This document shows positions 1 through 10,543 of a stretch of DNA of 10,543 nt, in pieces. A program made the position numbers and the translations under genes. Under the pieces are notes generated by a model that was not told where the DNA came from, did not search any database, and saw only the letters and a list, made by a program, of their open reading frames with translations. Numbering within the stretch: the first letter of the stretch is position 1; each line of letters begins with the position of its first letter. The DNA is from a virus: the UHGV virus genome UHGV-0097031; one strand, given 5' to 3'.

Positions 1-163
1 GTCGTCGCCGGGCGTGGCTGACCTGGCAGGTGGAGGCACCACCGCCACAACTCCTTTCAATTCATCATATAGCCGCTCAGGCTGTAACCCTTAATTAATA
101 CGAAGTTTCGACATCTCTATCGGTTTAACCGAGAGATGGTCGCGCGTGTAAAAAGGAGACGTT

Positions 164-739
164 ATGTTAATGGCGAACGATAACGCATATGCAGAAGAAG
201 ATCTCATTTTGAGTGACTTCATAGGGAAGCGGGAACGCTGGACCCAAAAGCGAGAGGAACTTTACGCCTCATTAGTTCGCAAAGGCGTCAATATCGAAAC
301 CGCACAGAGCGGCGATATGACAGTGGTAAGCGTTGGATTGCACGGTGTAAGCGTGTCAGCAATCAATCATGAGCCATACGTTGCGTTATCCGAGTCAATG
401 GTAAGGTTAGTTAAGTTCCTGAAGTACACAGAAGCGAATAATGTAATCATTGGCAAAAAGAATATCCCTTTTTCCTCGGCTTTTTACTGGATGATGAAAG
501 GGCTTGATGCCCGGCGGACATCATGGCCTAAAGGGAGCTATATATCGATGTTCCGTGGCAGCATTGGCAGCAAAGAAAAGCTCTTCGAATTCTTGCCGGA
601 AGAGGCATTCGATATTGTGGAAGGGTGCGATGTGATGGTTATGCCTCGGCTGGTAATGATGAATGGAGACTTACAGGCACAGACAGACTGGTTCGCCACT
701 GGCGTGGATATTATCGCGACTGACTGGGAGGCATTCTGA
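164..739 (+). CDS. Hypothetical protein with C-terminal DUF2829-like region
   Basis: 191-aa ORF; AGGAG (154-158) 5 nt upstream of ATG 164. C-terminal part (FSSAFYWMMKGLDARRTSWPKG ... TDWFATGVDIIATDWEAF) shares the F-S-x-A-x-x-W...G...RR..W..G start and W...D-[LI]-[LI]-A-x-DW end pattern with the clearer DUF2829 domain of the ORF at 8365-9042. By-eye comparison only. Confidence 0.55.
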   Translation: MLMANDNAYAEEDLILSDFIGKRERWTQKREELYASLVRKGVNIETAQSGDMTVVSVGLHGVSVSAINHEPYVALSESMVRLVKFLKYTEANNVIIGKKNIPFSSAFYWMMKGLDARRTSWPKGSYISMFRGSIGSKEKLFEFLPEEAFDIVEGCDVMVMPRLVMMNGDLQAQTDWFATGVDIIATDWEAF

Positions 740-1131
740 TGTACGAGACCACAAAATTAAGCATTCACGAAGTATCCAATGTGGAGTGGAATATCGTCAC
801 CTGTAAGATTGTATCGTGCAATGCTGCGCGTACTGATGCAGGCCATAAGAGTACGATAACAGGCTACATGGTAATGGCTTATAGGGGATTGAGAGTTCAC
901 TTTATCTGGAAAGCTCGGCAATTGACACCATTCAGAGAGCCGTCAATGCCATTAGAGGTAGAACAGGATTATTTAAGCCTGCCGGAAATAGACGGTGCAA
1001 CGCTGGTGGATTCTGATGGTCGTAAGGCTGATTTTGAAGTCAGCTTAAAGGTGGCGCAGGCCGTAATTAATAACTCACGTGGTAAGTGGATCGCTAAGGT
1101 AAAACACGTCGTTCGCTTATCTCGCTGGTAG
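739..1131 (+). CDS. Hypothetical protein
   Basis: 130-aa ORF; its ATG overlaps the upstream stop (TGATG at 737-741), suggesting translational coupling with the 164-739 gene. No recognisable motifs. Confidence 0.5.
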   Translation: MYETTKLSIHEVSNVEWNIVTCKIVSCNAARTDAGHKSTITGYMVMAYRGLRVHFIWKARQLTPFREPSMPLEVEQDYLSLPEIDGATLVDSDGRKADFEVSLKVAQAVINNSRGKWIAKVKHVVRLSRW

Positions 1132-1150
1132 TGTTAGATGAATGGAATTA

Positions 1151-1164
1151 ATTTTCTAATATAA
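1151..1164 (+). promoter_or_regulatory. Candidate repressor operator (ATTTTCTAATATAA) upstream of the packaging operon; a weaker inverted half-site lies at 1132-1142
   Basis: Member of a recurring TTTCTAA[C/T]A motif family also seen at 5563-5580, 5644-5658 (minus) and 6972-6987, all in intergenic positions before operons. From memory, the CTAATA core resembles the P1 C1 operator consensus ATTGCTCTAATAAATTT. Confidence 0.3.
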
Positions 1165-1239
1165 CCAACTTTTTGCCAGTCTATACAGAAATAACATTCT
1201 CATTATCATCCCCTCGGTCATTTCCTGCCTGGGGGATTA

Positions 1240-1632
1240 ATGGAGCATATCAGCAGCGCAGAAATTGCGGATATCATGATTAGGGCTGACTGCTATCTGA
1301 CAGTCACCGAAATCACCACTCTAGCTAAAGAAAAATATCCTCACCTTCATGTTTCACGAGTAAGTGTAACCAACATCATTCGGCATTTTGTGCGGTCAAG
1401 CCGAGCTATTTGTGAGCTTGATGATCGTGTTTACCCACGGAAATACTGGTTGCATGGCCTGAACGGATATCAGTTCAAGGTGCGCGGGCGCACGCCTGAA
1501 TACGGTAGCTTACTGGTTAAAAACTGTAGCAGGAAATCAGTCGAACAGGCGCGAAAAGAGCAACGAGAGCTGGTGGACATGGCGAATAAGCTGTGGAATG
1601 CCGCCGTTAAAAAGCGTGGTGTTGCTTTATGA
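1240..1632 (+). CDS. Hypothetical protein; positional candidate for a late-gene regulator (Lpa-like position upstream of pacA)
   Basis: 130-aa ORF; GGGGGA (1231-1236) just upstream of ATG 1240; its stop overlaps the downstream start (ATGA at 1629-1632). In P1 the gene before pacA is lpa (from memory); no sequence-level confirmation. Confidence 0.5.
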   Translation: MEHISSAEIADIMIRADCYLTVTEITTLAKEKYPHLHVSRVSVTNIIRHFVRSSRAICELDDRVYPRKYWLHGLNGYQFKVRGRTPEYGSLLVKNCSRKSVEQARKEQRELVDMANKLWNAAVKKRGVAL

Positions 1633-2993
1633 GTCTGGTTAATTGGGAGGAGCACCGCGCCCGCTTTATAGCGTTGCGTGAAGAAAAAGGGATCACTGTA
1701 AAGGAATACTGTGAGGAGCATGGCCTTAGCTTCAATACAGCCAGAAAGCATCTCAATATGAAAAAAAATGAGGTGCGGTCGCAGGTAAAGACAACAAAAA
1801 AAAGCACCAAATCACCTGAAAAAAAACGGGCGGGAAGAGCAACAAAAAAGCTGGAAGAGGGTGCAGAAAAAACAAAATTTACAGAAATTGACAATTCGCA
1901 GGGTGCAGGTTCTTTCCGAAGTATGCCAAGAAAGAAAACTTCGGATCATGAAAGTAATGCCAATAATAACAATGAGATAAAAGAATCTGTCAGGAGATCA
2001 TTGCGCGAAAAAATGGCGAAAATGATCCCCGAAGAAGATAAAAGCGCCCCAAAAATTGAGGGATCTTCAGCAATGATCCCTGGCGGTGCTGTGCAGCGTG
2101 CCACATTGCCCACTACGAATGTGGCTCGCGATATGATGAAGAACGGCGCAGAAGAACACCTGCGGTTAGCAATTCAAATGGCGCAAGAGCGCGCACTTCA
2201 GTATCAAAGCATTGTTGATCAGGAGGCCGAACGTCTACAGGCGGAAATAGACGCCTTGGGCGATAAAGAGCCAGAAGGAATGCACCCTGGGCAGCGCCTT
2301 CTCGGTCTAATCAGTGACGCGGCCTACTACATGAATGATTTTATCAGTAGGTTGGCAGCTATATATCAGTCCGAACAAAAGCTGCGACAGGGGGATGAAA
2401 AGCTTCGTCAGAGCGCTCGCCAGCAAGCATTCAAAGAGGCTGAGGCCAGAGAAAAACTCGAATTAGCACGCCTACAGGCCGAACAGCGTGGCAAAGAGAT
2501 TGAATATCGCATTGGCGCTGACGCACGCGCAGCCAGAGTTATCGCCGCCGCTATACGTATGCGTGAGCGCGAGGAACTGGATGATATCGGTGTTGCTGAA
2601 TACATCGAGCGCCAGGGGGTCAGCGTCCCGGCTATCCTCGCGGCGCGCGCGGCGAAAGCTATCACTCTTCTCGAACCACCTGTTTCTGACGTCAATGATG
2701 TTGATGATGAACAGCTGGACAAAGAGGCAAGGGAGTTTGCAACGCTTCAGGCTAACCATCCGCAATGGCTGGCAGAGCGCCGGGCGGATGTGGCAACCAT
2801 TGTTGAAGAATTGGGGTGCGGAGATTACGACCGCAATGGCGAGCGTAAAGCTGGAGAATTCGAGGCCAACGACGAAGAGCTGGATATTGACCCTTCGGCA
2901 ACGGCTGAAATTTACGGTGATTATGATGCATCTGATGCAGGGTATGACGCCGGAGATGATGATATCGCGATAGAACCGCCGGAGGATGATTAA
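1629..2993 (+). CDS. pacA: Terminase small subunit, PacA-like
   Basis: 454-aa ORF directly before and overlapping the large terminase gene (TAATG at 2991-2995). N-terminus (WEEHRARFIALREEKGITVKEYCEEHGLSFNTARKHL) looks like the HTH of small terminase subunits; Lys-rich linker, coiled-coil-like middle and strongly acidic C-terminal tail. Confidence 0.65.
   Translation: MSLVNWEEHRARFIALREEKGITVKEYCEEHGLSFNTARKHLNMKKNEVRSQVKTTKKSTKSPEKKRAGRATKKLEEGAEKTKFTEIDNSQGAGSFRSMPRKKTSDHESNANNNNEIKESVRRSLREKMAKMIPEEDKSAPKIEGSSAMIPGGAVQRATLPTTNVARDMMKNGAEEHLRLAIQMAQERALQYQSIVDQEAERLQAEIDALGDKEPEGMHPGQRLLGLISDAAYYMNDFISRLAAIYQSEQKLRQGDEKLRQSARQQAFKEAEAREKLELARLQAEQRGKEIEYRIGADARAARVIAAAIRMREREELDDIGVAEYIERQGVSVPAILAARAAKAITLLEPPVSDVNDVDDEQLDKEAREFATLQANHPQWLAERRADVATIVEELGCGDYDRNGERKAGEFEANDEELDIDPSATAEIYGDYDASDAGYDAGDDDIAIEPPEDD
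1943..2079. other. Candidate pac (packaging initiation) site: cluster of GATC-containing hexamers inside pacA
   Basis: Five GATC hexamers in 137 bp: GGATCA (1943-1948) and AGATCA (1995-2000) on the left, TGATCC (2023-2028), GGATCT (2061-2066) and TGATCC (2074-2079) on the right, arranged roughly as mirror images; AATGATCCC occurs twice (2021-2029, 2072-2080). P1 pac lies inside pacA and is built from Dam-methylatable TGATCA/G hexamers flanking the cut site (from memory). Confidence 0.3.
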
Positions 2994-4480
2994 TGGCTGG
3001 AGGGCGCAAGATTAAATGCGTCACCAGCGATCCACGCTGGCGCGATATGGTAATCAAATACCGCTACAACTTTACCCAGGCTGTTGTCGATATTTTTGGG
3101 ATGTTCCCCTCCCACCAGCAGCAGCAGATCATTCAGTCCGTGCAGGAAACGGGGAGTAGGACGACCGTCACGTCCGGACACGGAACGGGGAAGTCGTCCC
3201 TTACCGCGATGTTGCTGTTGATTTTCATGATCCTGTTCCCCGATGCCCGTGTCATCATTGTTGCTAACAAGATAGGCCAGGTAAAAACAGGCGTATTCAA
3301 ATACGTTAAACAGTATTGGGCGAATGTAGTTAAGCGTCATGGGTGGTTGCAGACCTATTTTGTCCTCTCTGACACCATGTTTTATGAGCGCTCCCGTAAG
3401 GGGATTTGGGAAGTTCTCTGCAAAGGTTATCGACTCGGCAACGAAGAAGCGCTGGCGGGTGAACACGCGGCACATTTGCTTCTAATTCTGGATGAAGCAT
3501 CTGGTATATCTGATAAGGCGATCGGCGTAATGACCGGTGCTCTTACTGAAGAAGATAACCGGATGTTGATGCTATCCCAGCCAACAAGGCCAAGTGGTTA
3601 TTTCTACGATTCGCACCATTCTCAAGCAAAAACCCCAGACAACCCGAAAGGGATCTGGACAGCAATTGTTCTTAACTCGGAAGAATCACCGTTCGTCACA
3701 CCACAATTCATCAAGCAGAAGCTTCTGGAATATGGCGGGCGCGATTCTATTGAGTACATGGTCAAGGTGCTTGGTCAGTTCCCACGAGAAATTAACGGCT
3801 ATTTGCTTGGTCGTGATGAATGCGATCGCGCTGCTCGCCGCAAGGTGTTGTTGGAGAAAAACTGGGGATGGGTGGCAACGGCTGACGTTGGTAATGGGCG
3901 AGATAAGTCGGTCCTCAACATCTGCAAGGTATCTGGTCACAGGGATAAGCGGCGCGTTGTTAACTTTAAGGTAATGGAGATGCCTGGCACTATGGACCCA
4001 TTGGCCTTTGCTGACTTCATATATAACGAATGTACGCCGGAAAAATACCCGAATATAACAATCGCGGTTGATGCTGATGGTTTTGGTTCTGATACGTGTG
4101 CGCAGTTGGTGCGTCGTGGTGCGAACCCGGTACGTATTCGGTGGGGAAAACCCATGTTTGCGAACAAAGACAGGGAGCGATTTGTTAATCAGCGTGCCTA
4201 CGCAAATATTATGGCGCGAGATGCCATAAAGTCAGGGCGTATGCGGATAGACAGTGACCCTAAAACGGCAGAGCAAGCGTCAAAAATCCCCTTTTTACTG
4301 AATGAAGAAGGGAAAATGGCGATGATGCGCAAAGAGCACATGCGGCAAAAGCTAAACATCAAATCGCCTGACCGATGGGATACCTACTGCTTCACTATGC
4401 TGGTGGACTATGTGCCTGCTAATGAAGATATTGGTGCCGAAATGGCAACTTTCCGAGATCAGGTTCTGGTGGATATATAA
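2993..4480 (+). CDS. pacB: Terminase large subunit, PacB-like (ATPase plus nuclease)
   Basis: 495-aa ORF; GGAGGA (2981-2986) 6 nt before ATG. P-loop TSGHGTGKSS, Walker B LLLILDEASGI, Asp-rich C-terminal half (e.g. VDADGFGSD) consistent with the terminase nuclease domain; size and position match P1 PacB (from memory). Confidence 0.85.
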   Translation: MAGGRKIKCVTSDPRWRDMVIKYRYNFTQAVVDIFGMFPSHQQQQIIQSVQETGSRTTVTSGHGTGKSSLTAMLLLIFMILFPDARVIIVANKIGQVKTGVFKYVKQYWANVVKRHGWLQTYFVLSDTMFYERSRKGIWEVLCKGYRLGNEEALAGEHAAHLLLILDEASGISDKAIGVMTGALTEEDNRMLMLSQPTRPSGYFYDSHHSQAKTPDNPKGIWTAIVLNSEESPFVTPQFIKQKLLEYGGRDSIEYMVKVLGQFPREINGYLLGRDECDRAARRKVLLEKNWGWVATADVGNGRDKSVLNICKVSGHRDKRRVVNFKVMEMPGTMDPLAFADFIYNECTPEKYPNITIAVDADGFGSDTCAQLVRRGANPVRIRWGKPMFANKDRERFVNQRAYANIMARDAIKSGRMRIDSDPKTAEQASKIPFLLNEEGKMAMMRKEHMRQKLNIKSPDRWDTYCFTMLVDYVPANEDIGAEMATFRDQVLVDI

Positions 4481-4481
4481 A

Positions 4482-4498
4482 GCCCCGCGATGCGGGGC
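4482..4498. terminator. Bidirectional intrinsic terminator between convergent pacB and the 4508-5545 gene
   Basis: Perfect hairpin GCCCCGC-GAT-GCGGGGC starting 2 nt after the pacB stop (4478-4480) and 9 nt before the minus-strand gene's stop (4508-4510); the minus strand has a T-rich run (TTTATATAT) after the stem, the plus strand only a weak one. Confidence 0.6.
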
Positions 4499-4507
4499 CG
4501 GTTGTGA

Positions 4508-5545
4508 TTACCAGAGCTTCGCGGCGTACTGCGTTTGGGGGAATGTGTATCCGTAACGTTCTTCGATTGCTTTGCCGTATTTTTTACGAGCTTCATTCAG
4601 TTTTATGCCGGTCAGGTCGTCTCCAGAGGCCATCATTACGTCTAACAATTCCAGATCCATTTTATCCAGCCTTGCCATTGCTTCACGTGATGTACGTATC
4701 TTACGCTCAATGATATGGCGAATAGCCGGATCGGCATCCTCCAGCATCTTAGCGGATTTCTGCTTAAGGCTTTCATTGCGAATATCGATGTTCCTTAAGA
4801 TGTACGACTTCGCAACGTAGCTTGGCTGGTGTTTTTCCAGGTCACGAACACGATATAAGTTAAAATCGCCGAGAAGGCTGCAAGGTACCGATTCGACGCC
4901 AGAATAAATTGTAATGCTCCGGCGCTCACCAACATTATTGACAACGGGGATCGTTGTCTTCGGTAGTCTTGCGAAAACCAATGCGCCATGTGCGCCAACT
5001 CTAAAGCGAGAAAGGGCATTGCTGCCTTCGATGTTTGTTGTCAGCACAACATCTGTATATGCCTCTTTACGCGCCCGGTAGATCTCGCCTTCAGGCTCAG
5101 CTTCAAAGAAGCGCTGTTCTTCTTCAAGAGCACCTACGATTTGAGAAAAAACCCTATTTTTCAGGCTTTTCTTTATGATTTTGTCGTATTTTTTGAGCAA
5201 TTGTTCACGTGTAAATGTACGTGTTGTTGTAGCGCTTTGCACAACAACATGCGTGCTTTGATTGGTGTCCTCAATGATGAATGGGATCGGAGAATATACA
5301 GACTCAACAATGTTCGACGCTTTGCCGTCGGCATCGCGGCACATGTCAACGAAGGCTTTCCATTCAGCAAGACATTTTTCAGCTTCTTCTAATATGTTTT
5401 GGTCATGCGTTAATGCAACATGGCGGAATTCCTCGCCAGCATAACTGGTATCATGGAAAACAGAGTTTGCGACCACCAGCTCTTTCCACCGTTCAGCGGT
5501 TTGCAGGAACCGTTTGTACTCTTTCTCGATCGACTTCTTACTCAT
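4508..5545 (-). CDS. Hypothetical 345-aa protein in the immunity-region position (between pacB and lox-cre); candidate immunity repressor or accessory gene
   Basis: Longest ORF in this interval; AGGA 5 nt upstream of its ATG (minus strand); own AT-rich upstream region with paired operator-like inverted repeats; convergent with pacB and divergent from cre, as in the P1 immC region. I could not recognise any conserved domain by eye. Confidence 0.7.
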   Translation of the reverse strand: MSKKSIEKEYKRFLQTAERWKELVVANSVFHDTSYAGEEFRHVALTHDQNILEEAEKCLAEWKAFVDMCRDADGKASNIVESVYSPIPFIIEDTNQSTHVVVQSATTTRTFTREQLLKKYDKIIKKSLKNRVFSQIVGALEEEQRFFEAEPEGEIYRARKEAYTDVVLTTNIEGSNALSRFRVGAHGALVFARLPKTTIPVVNNVGERRSITIYSGVESVPCSLLGDFNLYRVRDLEKHQPSYVAKSYILRNIDIRNESLKQKSAKMLEDADPAIRHIIERKIRTSREAMARLDKMDLELLDVMMASGDDLTGIKLNEARKKYGKAIEERYGYTFPQTQYAAKLW

Positions 5546-5562
5546 TATTCCTACTCGATTTA

Positions 5563-5662
5563 GTTTTCTAACATAAAATTACTATGACAAATTTATGTCG
5601 AATAACAGAGTGAGTAAAGGATCGAACTGTGATTTTTTGTCATCAATTTTAGAAAACCAACT
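5563..5662. repeat. Pair of ~28-30 bp imperfect inverted repeats (candidate operators) in the promoter region of the 4508-5545 gene
   Basis: Left arm (plus, 5563-5591) GTTTTCTAACATAAAATTACTATGACAAA; right arm read on the minus strand (5636-5658) GGTTTTCTAAAATTGATGACAAA. Blocks GTTTTCTAA, AAAATT and ATGACAAA are identical, with two small indels; the arms flank a ~44-bp centre. Confidence 0.45.
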
Positions 5663-5754
5663 GTATAAACCACGCTTCGCAAATTAAAGACCATGAAGGC
5701 AACGTGTTACTGGTCAGAATCAATCTGTGATGGATTAAAAAAAATCGCCATTTT

Positions 5755-5788
5755 ATAACTTTAAATAATTGGCATTATTTAAAGTTAG
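5755..5788. other. lox-like recombination site (13-bp inverted arms, 8-bp spacer)
   Basis: ATAACTTTAAATA - ATTGGCAT - TATTTAAAGTTAG; the arms are inverted repeats of each other at 12 of 13 positions, and the outer ATAACTT is identical to the outer 7 bp of the loxP arms (loxP: ATAACTTCGTATA). Lies 152 bp upstream of the Cre-family gene. Confidence 0.65.
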
Positions 5789-5796
5789 GCTATAAT
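5769..5796 (+). promoter_or_regulatory. Candidate sigma70 promoter reading toward cre, overlapping the lox spacer and right arm
   Basis: -35 TTGGCA (5769-5774), 16-bp spacer, -10 TATAAT (5791-5796); a TGATCA Dam-type hexamer at 5807-5812 lies just downstream. Confidence 0.4.
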
Positions 5797-5939
5797 TATG
5801 GGTAGATGATCAGTATTGACATCACTGAAAATACGTGCCTCGAATCAAAGGCTTGAATCTTGAAAATTAACTTATAGCTACCCTGTCATTTTTATATTTT
5901 TCGCGTAGCGTCATCTGTATATAGAGGTTAAATAGTTTC

Positions 5940-6968
5940 ATGAGTGAATTAATTATCTCTGGCAGCTCCGGTGGTTTTCTGCGCAACATTGGCAAAGAGT
6001 ACCAGGAGGCCGCAGAAAACTTTATGCGGTTCATGAATGACCAGGGGGCTTACGCGCCGAATACTTTGCGCGATCTCCGGTTAGTGTTTCACTCCTGGGC
6101 GAGATGGTGTCACGCTCGCCAGCTCGCCTGGTTCCCGATCTCACCAGAGATGGCCCGCGAGTATTTTCTTCAGCTGCATGATGCTGATCTGGCTTCGACC
6201 ACCATTGATAAGCACTACGCCATGCTTAACATGCTGCTTTCGCATTGTGGCCTTCCGCCACTTTCGGATGATAAAAGTGTTTCTCTGGCTATGCGGCGCA
6301 TCCGGCGTGAAGCGGCAACTGAAAAAGGCGAACGAACAGGCCAGGCTATACCGCTGCGGTGGGACGATCTGAAACTGCTCGACGTCCTGTTGTCCAGGTC
6401 AGAACGGCTGGTGGACCTGCGCAACCGGGCTTTTCTCTTTGTTGCATACAATACGCTGATGCGTATGTCGGAAATCTCGCGTATTCGTGTAGGAGATCTG
6501 GATCAAACAGGTGACACTGTCACGCTACATATTTCACACACGAAGACAATAACGACCGCCGCCGGGCTTGATAAGGTGCTTTCCCGTCGCACTACCGCTG
6601 TGCTGAATGACTGGCTGGATGTTTCCGGGCTTCGCGAACATCCTGACGCAGTGCTGTTCCCGCCGATACACCGTAGCAATAAGGCCAGGATCACGACAAC
6701 GCCCCTTACTGCACCTGCAATGGAGAAAATATTCAGCGACGCCTGGGTGTTGCTGAATAAAAGAGATGCTACGCCAAACAAAGGAAGATACCGGACGTGG
6801 ACCGGGCATAGTGCACGCGTCGGGGCCGCTATTGATATGGCTGAAAAGCAGGTGTCTATGGTGGAGATCATGCAGGAAGGAACCTGGAAGAAACCGGAAA
6901 CACTTATGCGGTATCTTCGCCGTGGCGGCGTGTCTGTGGGGGCTAATAGCCGCCTGATGGATTCGTAA
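5940..6968 (+). CDS. cre: Cre-family tyrosine site-specific recombinase
   Basis: 342-aa ORF that aligns by eye along its whole length with P1 Cre (343 aa): SWARWC / SWAAWC, WFP, LNML, SVSLAMRRIRRE / AVSLVMRRIRKE, AYNTLMRMSEISRIRV / AYNTLLRIAEIARIRV, HTKT / RTKT, WTGHSARVGAAIDMA / WSGHSARVGAARDMA, EIMQEGTW / EIMQAGGW, MRYLR / MNYIR. All catalytic positions (Arg, Lys, His-x-x-Arg, Trp, Tyr) are conserved. Confidence 0.9.
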   Translation: MSELIISGSSGGFLRNIGKEYQEAAENFMRFMNDQGAYAPNTLRDLRLVFHSWARWCHARQLAWFPISPEMAREYFLQLHDADLASTTIDKHYAMLNMLLSHCGLPPLSDDKSVSLAMRRIRREAATEKGERTGQAIPLRWDDLKLLDVLLSRSERLVDLRNRAFLFVAYNTLMRMSEISRIRVGDLDQTGDTVTLHISHTKTITTAAGLDKVLSRRTTAVLNDWLDVSGLREHPDAVLFPPIHRSNKARITTTPLTAPAMEKIFSDAWVLLNKRDATPNKGRYRTWTGHSARVGAAIDMAEKQVSMVEIMQEGTWKKPETLMRYLRRGGVSVGANSRLMDS

Positions 6969-6971
6969 ATT

Positions 6972-6987
6972 AAATTTCTAACACATC
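6972..6987 (+). promoter_or_regulatory. Candidate operator (AAATTTCTAACACATC) between cre and the downstream accessory operon
   Basis: Same TTTCTAACA core as the motifs at 1151-1164 and 5563-5580; followed by a short inverted TTAGA (6991-6995); sits 4 nt after the cre stop and ~55 nt before the TTG start at 7042. Confidence 0.3.
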
Positions 6988-7041
6988 TTTTTAGATTAAC
7001 GCCTTTGCTGTAAAGTACCCTCGCCTATTTAGGAGGGTGCT

Positions 7042-7386
7042 TTGCAGAGTCAAATCACGGAATCAAGACGCTTCAAGGTGGATGGTTACACCGTAACCTT
7101 CGCCGCTGGTGTTAAGAACAGTCATGCTGTCGTTGTGTTCGGCATCATGACCGGGCTTGAGGCCGTCCCTGTGTTTACCCTCGAAAAAAACTGGCGAAAT
7201 CTGGAGGAAGCAGAAAGCTACGTCCGGAAAGTAACCATCATTGCCGCCGAAAAACTCCTGGCCCACTATCAGGAAAATTATCGCACTATGGTCGAGAAGA
7301 TTAATCTCGCTTTCACTCGCCCCACTACCGGCTTTATTGCACCGGATACTAATGCCGGTCGATATCCTGCAAGGGGGCGTCGGTGA
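7042..7386 (+). CDS. Hypothetical protein (TTG start)
   Basis: 114-aa ORF starting at TTG 7042, preceded by a strong AGGAGG (7031-7036) at 5-nt spacing; the first in-frame ATG would remove ~35 residues. No recognisable motifs. Confidence 0.5.
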   Translation: MQSQITESRRFKVDGYTVTFAAGVKNSHAVVVFGIMTGLEAVPVFTLEKNWRNLEEAESYVRKVTIIAAEKLLAHYQENYRTMVEKINLAFTRPTTGFIAPDTNAGRYPARGRR

Positions 7387-7859
7387 AAACTTATTACCCA
7401 TCTCTGAATTGTTACCCGTCTTCCTATCCAGAATTATCCGGGAAGCTGTTAGCTCTATTAGCTAAAGCACCTACGGAATGGTTTAAGCCAGTCGTTATCA
7501 ATCCACACTTCCTGGGTTACGGATCTGTTCGCACTCGTAACGAACTCAAAAACCTACTGGCGCATGGATTCATTCGACACCGTGCCGGGAAAGGCTATCA
7601 GTTAGCGATTGCGCCAGAAGAGGCCGTGCGGCTATTCGCATATCGTGACAGCCAGACAAAAACTCGGGTAATAGCTCAAATACTTCATAACGGCAGCACC
7701 TATGCCCGCCAGTTTGGCGGCGACACGTCGCAGTTCTTGCGGGCGGTGCGATCGCTGGAGGAGCAAGGAGTTATTGAAAGTTCCTGTCTTCCTGTTCCTA
7801 CCGTTCCACATATCAAACGTCGGGTTTACACCTTCACGCAGAGAGCTAAAAAACAATGA
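7383..7859 (+). CDS. Hypothetical protein, possibly winged-helix DNA-binding (GTG start)
   Basis: 158-aa ORF; GTG start overlaps the upstream stop (GTGA, 7383-7386) with AAGGGGG 5 nt upstream. The segment LRAVRSLEEQGVIES...KRRVYTFTQRA resembles the recognition-helix/wing pattern of winged-helix regulators (weak, by eye). Confidence 0.5.
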   Translation: MKTYYPSLNCYPSSYPELSGKLLALLAKAPTEWFKPVVINPHFLGYGSVRTRNELKNLLAHGFIRHRAGKGYQLAIAPEEAVRLFAYRDSQTKTRVIAQILHNGSTYARQFGGDTSQFLRAVRSLEEQGVIESSCLPVPTVPHIKRRVYTFTQRAKKQ

Positions 7860-8350
7860 TTTACGTAAAAGTGAAACGCCTACATCCGGCAGCAAAACTT
7901 CCAGCTTATGCCACCTCCGGATCGGCGGCGATGGATTTTGAGGCTGTTGAAATAAAACCATGCGTCGATAGCAATGGTGCAATTTCCTCAAGCTGGTGGG
8001 TGTATACCGGACTGGCTATGGAGATCCCGCCCGGCTGGTGTCTGAAACTCTATCCGCGATCAGGATTGGGCTGCAAAAAACATACTCGCCTGGCTAACTG
8101 CGTAGGAATTATCGACTCCGATTATCGCGGCGAAATCATGGCAAAACTGATTACTGATCCCGGCGGGGAAGGCGTTTGTCTCAAGCCTGGAATGGCTGTC
8201 ATGCAAGGAATTTTTGAGCGTGTTGAACAAGTCTCACTAGTCGAGGTTGAGGAACTCAACGAAACGGAGCGTGGTGCTGGTGGCTTTGGTAGCACATCGG
8301 AAGGCCACTTTGAAATTAAGCGTTCACCGCTTCAGTACGAAAAGTTATAA
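7856..8350 (+). CDS. dut: dUTP diphosphatase (trimeric dUTPase family)
   Basis: 164-aa ORF with the conserved dUTPase motifs in order: YATSGSAAMDF (motif I, variant of AGxDL), PRSGLG (II), GIIDSDYRGEI (III), AVMQGIF (IV), ERGAGGFGSTS (V). Alignable by eye with E. coli Dut; ~16-aa C-terminal extension. Start overlaps upstream stop (ATGA, 7856-7859). Confidence 0.9.
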   Translation: MIYVKVKRLHPAAKLPAYATSGSAAMDFEAVEIKPCVDSNGAISSSWWVYTGLAMEIPPGWCLKLYPRSGLGCKKHTRLANCVGIIDSDYRGEIMAKLITDPGGEGVCLKPGMAVMQGIFERVEQVSLVEVEELNETERGAGGFGSTSEGHFEIKRSPLQYEKL

Positions 8351-8364
8351 GCAGAGAAAAGACT

Positions 8365-9042
8365 ATGAATAACAAGGCAACGAAAGAGCTTTTTAAGCTC
8401 CTTCCCAAATACAAAGCTCACAAAAACGTTAGTGCATCGAAAATCAAAAATGTTGTTATTTTCGGAGTAACTGATACCCCACTTTGGGGCAGCATCGAAC
8501 TCGTTGAACCTAAAGGGGCAACAGTTTGTGTTGACGCAATGTTTTTACAAAAACACCGACCAAAAACTGGCGGGTATCTGATCGTTTATGAAAACGGTTA
8601 TCTGTTCTATGCCCCGGAGAAACCATTTGAGGAACGCTATGGCCTGGTTAACGACGCCTCCAAAAATGGAACCACGGTCATCATTACGGATGACAACGGC
8701 GCGATGATTAATCTTACCGGGAGCGTAACTATTTCTGCTGGTGGCATCACCACCCAGCAAGAAGAAATCGACCTTGAAGCAGCCGACTTTTCTGACGCGC
8801 TGATGTGGCTGAAGGATGGCAAGAAAGTTGCTCGACGCGGGTGGAACGGCGAAAACCAATTCTGCTGGCTGGTTCCTGAAGGACAGTACCCGGCACGAAT
8901 GGAAGCCATTAAGGGATATTTTCCCGGCGACCTCGTTCCGTATGGTGCTTATTTCGCCTTAAAAAATGCACAAGGTGTAGTTGTTCCGTGGGTGCCTTCA
9001 GTTGGCGACCTGCTGGCCTGTGACTGGTTTGTTGTGGAGTGA
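8365..9042 (+). CDS. Two-part protein: unknown N-terminal region (~140 aa) fused to a C-terminal DUF2829 (Tad2-family) domain
   Basis: 225-aa ORF. C-terminal ~85 aa (DFSDALMWLKDGKKVARRGWNGENQFCWLVPEG...PYGAYFALKNAQGVVVPWVPSVGDLLACDWFVVE) matches the DUF2829 pattern I recall (F-x-x-A-L-x-x-L-K-x-G-K-K-V-x-R-x-G-W-N-G ... P-W-x-x-S-x-x-D-L-L-A-x-D-W). N-terminal part unrecognised. Confidence 0.7.
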   Translation: MNNKATKELFKLLPKYKAHKNVSASKIKNVVIFGVTDTPLWGSIELVEPKGATVCVDAMFLQKHRPKTGGYLIVYENGYLFYAPEKPFEERYGLVNDASKNGTTVIITDDNGAMINLTGSVTISAGGITTQQEEIDLEAADFSDALMWLKDGKKVARRGWNGENQFCWLVPEGQYPARMEAIKGYFPGDLVPYGAYFALKNAQGVVVPWVPSVGDLLACDWFVVE

Positions 9043-9048
9043 TTTGAC

Positions 9049-9816
9049 ATGGAAAGCACTAAAACAATTCAATACCGCTTGCGTAATGGCCTGCTGGTGG
9101 CTGTTAACGCCGACATGTCACTGCCGTTTGACACGATTGAACGCACTATCATGACGTATCTCGGCTTTAATGAAGAGCTGAATGAAGAGCATGGCGTAGC
9201 TATATGGAGTGATGCAGACAGCGGCGTTCGTCGTTACATCACCGCCAGGGGCAAAGACTACTCTCTGGAAGAACTGTTTGCCCTTGCGCAGTCTTTCGAA
9301 TGTGTAGCATTAGACCTGTTTAATGATCCTGCTATAGCGCAACGACTTATACGCGAGCTTGGGCTATCCGTTACACCAATTATCTTTAAAAATGGCAGCC
9401 TGACTGGCACATGGCGCGTAGAACGCATCTCAAACTACCTTCCATATAACCGACAGTTAAATGGAGTAATCTCCGGCGTTAATCAGCCCGTAGCGTGTGA
9501 AAATGTAAACCTAGTTGTCGCTGTTTTGGCAACCGCATGTCGTGTTATCGGTTTGGCTAAACAGGCATTTATTCATTTCCCAAATGGTGCAGAAGGTAGC
9601 GCAGAGATTATCGCGTGTGATTTCGAATTTACCTGGATGCTACGCGAATATCTGGACCAAACAGTATTCCGTGCCGAAGAACTGGATATGTATATCACGT
9701 CAACGATTCCAGACGATGTGCGAGCTGAAGCAATCGCTACAGCCAGGGCGAAATGCCGTGCGGCGATTGCAGAACAGGCCAAAGAAGAAGTTAAGGAAGT
9801 GGCAGATGGCGACTAA
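9049..9816 (+). CDS. Hypothetical protein, translationally coupled to the downstream terminase-like paralog
   Basis: 255-aa ORF; its last 11 nt overlap the start of the next gene (ATG 9806, stop 9814-9816). No recognisable motifs; Ala-rich helical C-terminus. Confidence 0.6.
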   Translation: MESTKTIQYRLRNGLLVAVNADMSLPFDTIERTIMTYLGFNEELNEEHGVAIWSDADSGVRRYITARGKDYSLEELFALAQSFECVALDLFNDPAIAQRLIRELGLSVTPIIFKNGSLTGTWRVERISNYLPYNRQLNGVISGVNQPVACENVNLVVAVLATACRVIGLAKQAFIHFPNGAEGSAEIIACDFEFTWMLREYLDQTVFRAEELDMYITSTIPDDVRAEAIATARAKCRAAIAEQAKEEVKEVADGD

Positions 9817-10543
9817 GAGCAATATTTATAAAGATCCGCGCTGGCTGTCGCTGGTGGAGAAATATAAAGACAATTGGGTACTGGCAGCAAAAGAATTGTT
9901 TGATATTGATTTAAGCCACCAGCAACAACAAATTGTTGAAGCTATACAGCCCAATAATGCAAAAGCTACTGTCACCACTCCGTATGGGATCGGACGACCG
10001 CAAGTGCTTGCTGTTATTAGTACCCTTTATACGATTATGTATCCTGATTCCCGGACAGTAATTGTTTATCCAAAATCAAATGTTTGCAAAAGAGGAATTG
10101 TTGCATATGTGTGGCAATGTTGGGAGGCATTGCTGAAAAAACAACCTTTTATCATTGAGTATTTTAAGGTCGGTGATAGCGGTCTGATGTTCAATGAATT
10201 TTGGGGAATGTGCTTTTGTAACTACCGCCTTAACTATGAAGATAGCATTGCAGGTCACTACGCCGACCATCTTTTATTCATTATTGTGGATTCCGCACAT
10301 ATCAGCGATCGGGCATACAGCATTGTGTGGGCAAGCATGACTAGTGGTGATTCACGCATATTGCTCACTTCAATTCCGTCACCAGAGGAAATAGGCTTTT
10401 TTTATGATTCACATCATGGACGTGCTTTAGCTGAAGATAATCCGAGTGGTGTATATAAAGCCATTAAGCTGAGTGCGGAGGATTCACCATTTATTACCCA
10501 AGAATATCTTGATCATTTTGCCGAAAGGTATGGCGGGCGAAAT
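9806..10543 (+). CDS. Terminase large subunit (PacB) paralog with degenerate Walker A and B motifs; 3' end beyond window
   Basis: Partial ORF (246 codons, runs off the window end). Colinear with PacB 2993-4480: DPRW, SHQQQQI, YPDSRTVIV / FPDARVIIV, HLLFIIVDSAHISD / HLLLILDEASGISD, FYDSHH, DNP, SAEDSPFIT / SEESPFVT, ERYGGR / EYGGR. The P-loop position reads TTPYGIGRPQ instead of TSGHGTGKSS (Lys to Arg, Ser to Pro), and Walker B is VDSA instead of LDEAS (Glu lost). Confidence 0.75.
   Translation, partial: MATKSNIYKDPRWLSLVEKYKDNWVLAAKELFDIDLSHQQQQIVEAIQPNNAKATVTTPYGIGRPQVLAVISTLYTIMYPDSRTVIVYPKSNVCKRGIVAYVWQCWEALLKKQPFIIEYFKVGDSGLMFNEFWGMCFCNYRLNYEDSIAGHYADHLLFIIVDSAHISDRAYSIVWASMTSGDSRILLTSIPSPEEIGFFYDSHHGRALAEDNPSGVYKAIKLSAEDSPFITQEYLDHFAERYGGRN

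Follow-up and report, generated by a model that had tools for sequence, protein, structure and literature searches.

The open reading frame at positions 5940–6968 of virus genome UHGV-0097031 is dre, the gene of the Cre-like tyrosine recombinase Dre of phage D6, and the palindrome located 152 bp upstream of its ATG is rox, the target site of this enzyme. Both belong to the immC/pac–c1 region of a plasmid-prophage of Enterobacteriaceae that resembles D6. We assign a probability of about 97% to this reading, and there is no evidence against the Dre identification. The Dre/rox pair is already known (2004) and is an established genome-engineering tool; hence, the finding holds no novelty, and its discovery value in itself is none. 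In the following, the window denotes the whole stretch of DNA that was analyzed (10,543 nucleotides).

Identification of the recombinase gene

5940–6968, plus strand: dre, Cre-like tyrosine site-specific recombinase Dre; ATG-to-stop open reading frame of 342 amino acids plus stop codon

The translated reading frame is identical to D6 Dre (AAV84949) in 342 of 342 residues without a single gap (BLASTP), and 100% matches of the protein to AY753669, MF356679, and NC_050154 were obtained by tblastn. The database search for the nearest characterized relative, which the preliminary description had proposed, thus leads to Dre of phage D6. On the DNA level, megablast of positions 5600–7000 against annotated phage genomes returned Escherichia phage D6 with 96% identity, the matched features being annotated as "dre: tyrosine recombinase" and "region of crossover (rox) site for Dre recombinase." Residues 157–327 match Pfam family PF00589 (Phage_integrase) with 62.6 bits at a cut-off of 27.1, and the N-terminal SAM-like core-binding family PF02899 is hit with 21.6 bits, just below its cut-off of 22.3. 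A PDB search with the whole protein gave no Dre structure; all 17 matches (~236 bits) are Cre or the Cre-derived Tre. Herein, residues 22–341 of Dre align to the Cre chains with E = 5e-69 (HMMER), which confirms the Cre homology that had been proposed for this frame at the outset.

The chromosome-dimer resolvases among the tyrosine recombinases were tried and rejected, namely XerC, with an NCBIfam equivalog score of 27.8 bits against a cut-off of 335, and XerD, with 21.1 bits against 330.

The rox site

5756–5787, no strand assigned: rox, the 32-bp Dre target, with 14-bp inverted arms and an asymmetric core
5756–5769 and 5774–5787: arms of rox
5770–5773: 4-bp core of rox, TGGC

An inverted-repeat search returned the site as a pair of perfectly inverted 14-nt repeats 4 nt apart, and it reads TAACTTTAAATAAT-TGGC-ATTATTTAAAGTTA. 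The known rox sequence, TAACTTTAAATAATGCCAATTATTTAAAGTTA in its minus-strand writing, is matched exactly by a single copy in the window, with 0 copies expected by chance. Column for column, the site equals the misc_recomb feature "rox" of AY753669 (32/32), and the native flanking bases, (A)...(G), agree with those given in PMC3082901. Hence, the recombinase does possess a lox-type site of its own with altered arms, as had been suggested, and this site is the rox of D6. The 152-bp leader that connects rox and dre carries about 10 substitutions relative to D6. The cleavage positions within rox still await experimental mapping (PMC4777119).

A Dre-family variant with shifted target specificity, i.e., a further and new orthogonal pair, might be suspected because the identity to D6 on the DNA level is no more than about 96% and because natural Dre-like proteins of 89–94% identity exist, some of them with a TAGT core in their rox. 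This reading is refuted by the count of zero amino acid differences from D6 Dre together with the complete identity of rox, and we regard it as exceedingly improbable.

Published activity of the identical protein

The Dre/rox system was described by Sauer and McDermott in 2004, as cited in PMC4957104, PMC3082901, and PMC4777119. Recombination of rox by Dre is efficient in E. coli as well as in mammalian cells and depends on no accessory protein (PMC4957104, PMC3082901, PMC3553980); Dre performs both integration and excision (PMC3553980). Dre/rox and Cre/loxP showed no cross-reactivity in E. coli assays on the identical protein and site, and neither VloxP nor SloxM1 cross-reacts with Dre (PMC3082901). 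The same holds for vox (PMC4957104, PMC3082901, PMC3553980), whereas pox does cross-react (PMC4957104). The two outcomes that would have spoken against the preliminary description, an inactive protein or one equally efficient on loxP and on its own site, are thus answered in the negative for the identical protein (PMC3082901, PMC4957104). The suggestion of a naturally occurring orthogonal pair of the Cre/lox type, hence, holds by way of the identity to D6 Dre/rox, which is non-cross-reacting (PMC3082901). As to the practical interest that had been attached to it, the pair is indeed a useful tool but not a new one, having been described in 2004 and being widely used. Work in mice, zebrafish, cell lines, and bacteria routinely employs Dre/rox beside Cre/loxP.

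Genomic neighborhood and divergence from D6

1629–2993, plus strand: pacA, terminase subunit, collinear with pacA of AY753669
2993–4480, plus strand: pacB, terminase subunit, collinear with pacB of AY753669
4508–5545, minus strand: c1, prophage repressor, divergent and 210 bp away from rox; same location and size as in AY753669

Positions 884–8164 of the window are collinear with 17–7316 of the D6 immC record (AY753669), the identity being 97.2%. Window and D6 have the order lpa–pacA–pacB–c1–rox–dre–orf2–orf3–dut in common, with c1 on the reverse strand. The divergence from D6 varies by gene, amounting to 0.4% in c1 and pacA, 3.7% in dre, and 6.4% in lpa; c1 differs from its counterpart in AY753669 by 4 nucleotides and by no amino acid. 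Such mosaic divergence implies recombination among D6-like phage-plasmids. Because its DNA differs from D6, does so mosaically, and departs from D6 beyond dut, the window is, as judged from its sequence, a separate D6-like phage-plasmid isolate and not D6 itself.

Of the 1029 positions of dre, 38 differ from the D6 counterpart (AY753669 5093–6121), each of them by a synonymous substitution. Based on 247 synonymous and 779 non-synonymous sites, this corresponds to pS = 0.15 and pN = 0, with P about 3e-24 under neutrality. Therefore, the Dre protein is in use and under strong purifying selection. This bears on the notion that the frame is what remains of a Cre-like gene, decaying or already inactive; a related record, plasmid pSa1423-90k, could be cited in favor of it, since the frame there is broken by many frameshifts. 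However, these breaks are scattered through the gene and look like sequencing error, and the frame in the window is intact and of full length, with intact catalytic residues and with 38/38 differences from D6 being silent. Moreover, the identical protein is active in experiments (PMC4957104, PMC3082901), so that a relic is hardly credible. A minor gain of the analysis is that the protein is seen to be perfectly conserved across D6-like phage-plasmids with about 4% DNA divergence.

The collinearity with D6 immC stops inside dut (8164), and the remaining DNA (8164–10543) resembles SJ46/P1-like phages; this switch from D6-like to SJ46-like DNA after dut is a mosaic junction. The dut frame itself comprises 164 amino acids in the window versus 148 annotated in D6. 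The next gene, of 225 amino acids (8365–9042), exhibits ~83% DNA identity to phages SJ46, Ro157c2YLVW, and RCS47 in a region that is annotated there as a DUF2829-domain/isaA-associated protein. Inside pacA, five GATC sites (GGATCA, AGATCA, TGATCC, GGATCT, and TGATCC) are found within 132 bp (1944–2078), the window average being one per ~234 bp. By analogy to the Dam-methylated hexamer repeats of P1 pac, this cluster is a candidate pac site.

Occurrence and natural relatives

The closest records are the E. coli plasmids CP042620 and NZ_CP074704, with 99.4% identity and sizes of about 93–95 kb. In PLSDB, 144 plasmids of Escherichia, Salmonella, Shigella, and Enterobacter carry Dre-like DNA; their size is mostly ~90 kb, and many are typed as non-mobilizable. 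Such DNA also occurs in 124 of the 5426 complete E. coli genomes (~2%), where 123 of 126 places are on plasmids and 3 on chromosomes. D6-like plasmid prophages are a recognized group (e.g., PMC6799933), and Dre/rox has earlier been noted in the E. coli strains H252 and DEC12A (Karimova et al., PMC4957104).

This distribution also bears on a conventional phage integrase that would insert the element at a chromosomal att site, a reading suggested by the Pfam family name "Phage integrase," by the database label "tyrosine-type recombinase/integrase," and by the three chromosomal places. The overwhelming share of plasmid-borne places and the P1/D6 plasmid-prophage architecture of the element speak against it, as does the target, which is a simple 32-bp palindromic site by the gene as opposed to a complex attP with arm sites. 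In addition, Dre excises and integrates on minimal sites without accessory factors (PMC3082901, PMC3553980). An att-site integrase is, therefore, very improbable, and the plasmid-prophage recombinase Dre remains the preferred reading.

Dre homologues with 89.5–94% identity are encoded on five plasmids, from S. dysenteriae, E. coli, E. hormaechei, S. Typhi (pK91), and C. portucalensis. The seven catalytic residues as well as R44, P259, and K263 are kept in each of these homologues, and in all five loci rox is spaced from the ATG by 152 bp, as in the window and D6. The arms of rox are unchanged in four of the five loci, with one change per arm in S. dysenteriae. The core comes in two alleles, TGGC (window, D6, and two relatives) and TAGT (three relatives):

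L003 (CP026818), 1317–1348: TAGT-core rox, arms 1 nt off each; Dre homologue of about 90% amino acid identity
L007 (CP029874), 404–435: TAGT-core rox, arms identical; Dre homologue of about 90% amino acid identity
L008 (CP054131), 426–457: TAGT-core rox, arms identical; Dre homologue of about 90% amino acid identity

Because changes of the central 4 bp only mildly lower compatibility with wild-type rox (PMC4777119), the TGGC and TAGT alleles may not be fully heterospecific.

In one further record, L004 (NZ_MK356557.1, pSa1423-90k), many frameshifts interrupt dre at scattered points, and rox is changed in its left arm. A dre pseudogene was considered for this record and rejected: as the frameshifts spread along the whole gene, an error-rich assembly is most likely.

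Proposed mechanism and biological role

As judged from homology with Cre and from published work on the identical protein, each rox would be occupied by two Dre monomers at its two 14-bp arms, and the synapse of two such sites would be a tetramer. Tyr325, helped by R175, E178, K202, H290, R293, and W316, would then cut one pair of strands under formation of 3′-phosphotyrosyl links. Strand exchange would lead to a Holliday junction, after which the second pair of strands would be exchanged; neither an accessory protein nor an energy cofactor would be required for the reaction. The asymmetric core would set the direction of the site, and the choice of rox over loxP would arise from altered DNA-facing residues, notably R44, P259, and K263. 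The tetrameric synapse, the phosphotyrosyl intermediate, and the Holliday junction are herein inferred for Dre from the related enzyme.

In P1, Cre/lox cyclizes injected terminally redundant DNA and resolves plasmid-prophage dimers. Dre/rox would, by the same analogy, serve D6 in two ways: first, by circularizing the terminally redundant phage DNA after injection and, second, by resolving dimers of the plasmid-prophage, which would ensure faithful segregation of a low-copy plasmid. The position of rox ~3–4 kb downstream of pacA and pacB, as in P1, fits both presumed roles.

Possible regulation of dre

5769–5796, plus strand: candidate sigma-70 promoter that overlaps rox and is directed toward dre; 11/12 match to the consensus

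The candidate promoter is composed of a −35 hexamer TTGGCA (5769–5774), a 16-nt spacer, and a −10 hexamer TATAAT (5791–5796). The −35 hexamer reaches across the core of rox into the beginning of its right arm; the perfect TATAAT is located 3 bp past the site. A match of at least 11/12 arose in 11 of 300 shuffles of positions 5400–7100 and in 37 of 1000 shuffles of the intergenic region. The −10 hexamer keeps its offset in D6; of the five diverged Dre-like loci, three likewise have it there, and two show a 5/6 match. From these sequence features, rox might double as a part of the dre promoter, so that rox-bound Dre would repress its own transcription; we consider this conceivable but rather unlikely. 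If true, the supply of recombinase would be tied to site occupancy, which would be a regulatory difference from Cre/lox, since the P1 annotation has no promoter inside lox.

The P1 C1 operator consensus ATTGCTCTAATAAATTT was not found in the window with up to 3 mismatches; thus, there is no sign that dre is controlled through an operator of the P1 type. Two copies of the 9-mer TTTCTAACA are present in the window, at 5565–5573 and 6975–6983, where 0.07 occurrences are expected. One copy precedes the c1 start by ~20 bp, and the other directly follows the dre stop codon, both in an A/T-rich context. The 9-mer may serve as an operator or have some other regulatory function.

Comparison with known systems

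Dre/rox of D6 (AY753669, MF356679) agrees with the system in the window in the protein, in rox including its flanking bases, in the 152-bp spacing, and in the gene order. The differences are the 38 synonymous substitutions in dre, the mosaic divergence, and the other DNA beyond dut.

Panto/pox from Pantoea sp. aB (Karimova et al. 2016, PMC4957104) is likewise Cre-like, and Panto is reportedly 52% identical to Dre. Panto recombines rox, pox is recombined by Dre, and both enzymes carry the specificity residues R/P/K (PMC4957104). Nevertheless, Panto is another protein with relaxed specificity and from another host genus. Plasmids of Pantoea are among the distant matches obtained in the present analysis.

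AF234172 supplied the sequences of cre and of the right lox half for the comparison with Cre/loxP of P1. Dre and Cre share 137 of 328 aligned columns (41.8%, MAFFT), and tblastn of Dre residues 23–341 against P1 cre gives 41.3%. By homology, fold and chemistry would be common to both. The seven catalytic residues of Cre, R173/E176/K201/H289/R292/W315/Y324, correspond to R175/E178/K202/H290/R293/W316/Y325 of Dre in both the HMMER and the MAFFT alignment, so that, as previously claimed, every catalytic residue is kept (7/7); the numbering agrees with PMC4777119 for five of the seven.

The DNA-contacting regions are changed, as had also been predicted. Thirty-six positions of Cre, known from Cre–loxP structures and directed-evolution work, were taken by us as DNA contacts, and 8/36 of them are identical in Dre versus 42% identity overall. 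Among the 36 are K43/R259/G263 of Cre, whose control over the choice between loxP and rox has been demonstrated by experiment and which are replaced by R44/P259/K263 in Dre. Cre with the exchanges K43R, R259P, and G263K loses its activity on loxP and gains activity on rox (PMC4957104).

The preliminary description further held that the N-terminal 40 residues are unrelated to Cre, which is overstated. Only about 21 residues are unalignable, as the BLAST and HMMER alignments start at residues 22–23, and from residue 22 onward Dre aligns to the N-terminal domain of Cre without gaps (residues 22–40, 5/19 identical, MAFFT). Several of the matched PDB Cre chains align from their own residue 2 or 3, and the unalignable N terminus of Dre corresponds to a tail that is missing or disordered in the Cre crystal constructs. 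Similarly, the impression that identical blocks alternate with fully diverged stretches does not exceed chance. When the identity positions were shuffled, the longest identical run of nine residues (GHSARVGAA) had P = 0.06 and the longest non-identical run of eight residues P = 0.86. In windows of 15 residues, the identity ranges from 13% to 73%, with peaks of 60–73% around the catalytic motifs and the lowest values (13–20%) in the interdomain linker and around residues 233–250.

No loxP match with up to 3 mismatches is present anywhere in the window; therefore, the recombinase gene does not lie beside a lox site. P1 Cre proper was rejected as an identification for the frame in view of the 42% identity, the replaced specificity residues, and the lack of loxP in the window. 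Both target sites have palindromic arms, which are arranged as 14-4-14 in rox and as 13-8-13 in loxP. Written as 13-8-13 (window 5755–5788), rox is identical to loxP at 10/13 and 9/13 bases of the arms and at 3/8 bases of the spacer, and the three changed bases per arm form the CGT/ACG triplet that Karimova et al. (PMC4957104) describe. In P1, the cra gene lies between lox and cre, which are about 420 bp apart, whereas the window has no cra and a distance of 152 bp; in both elements, the recombinase gene adjoins c1 and the pac genes.
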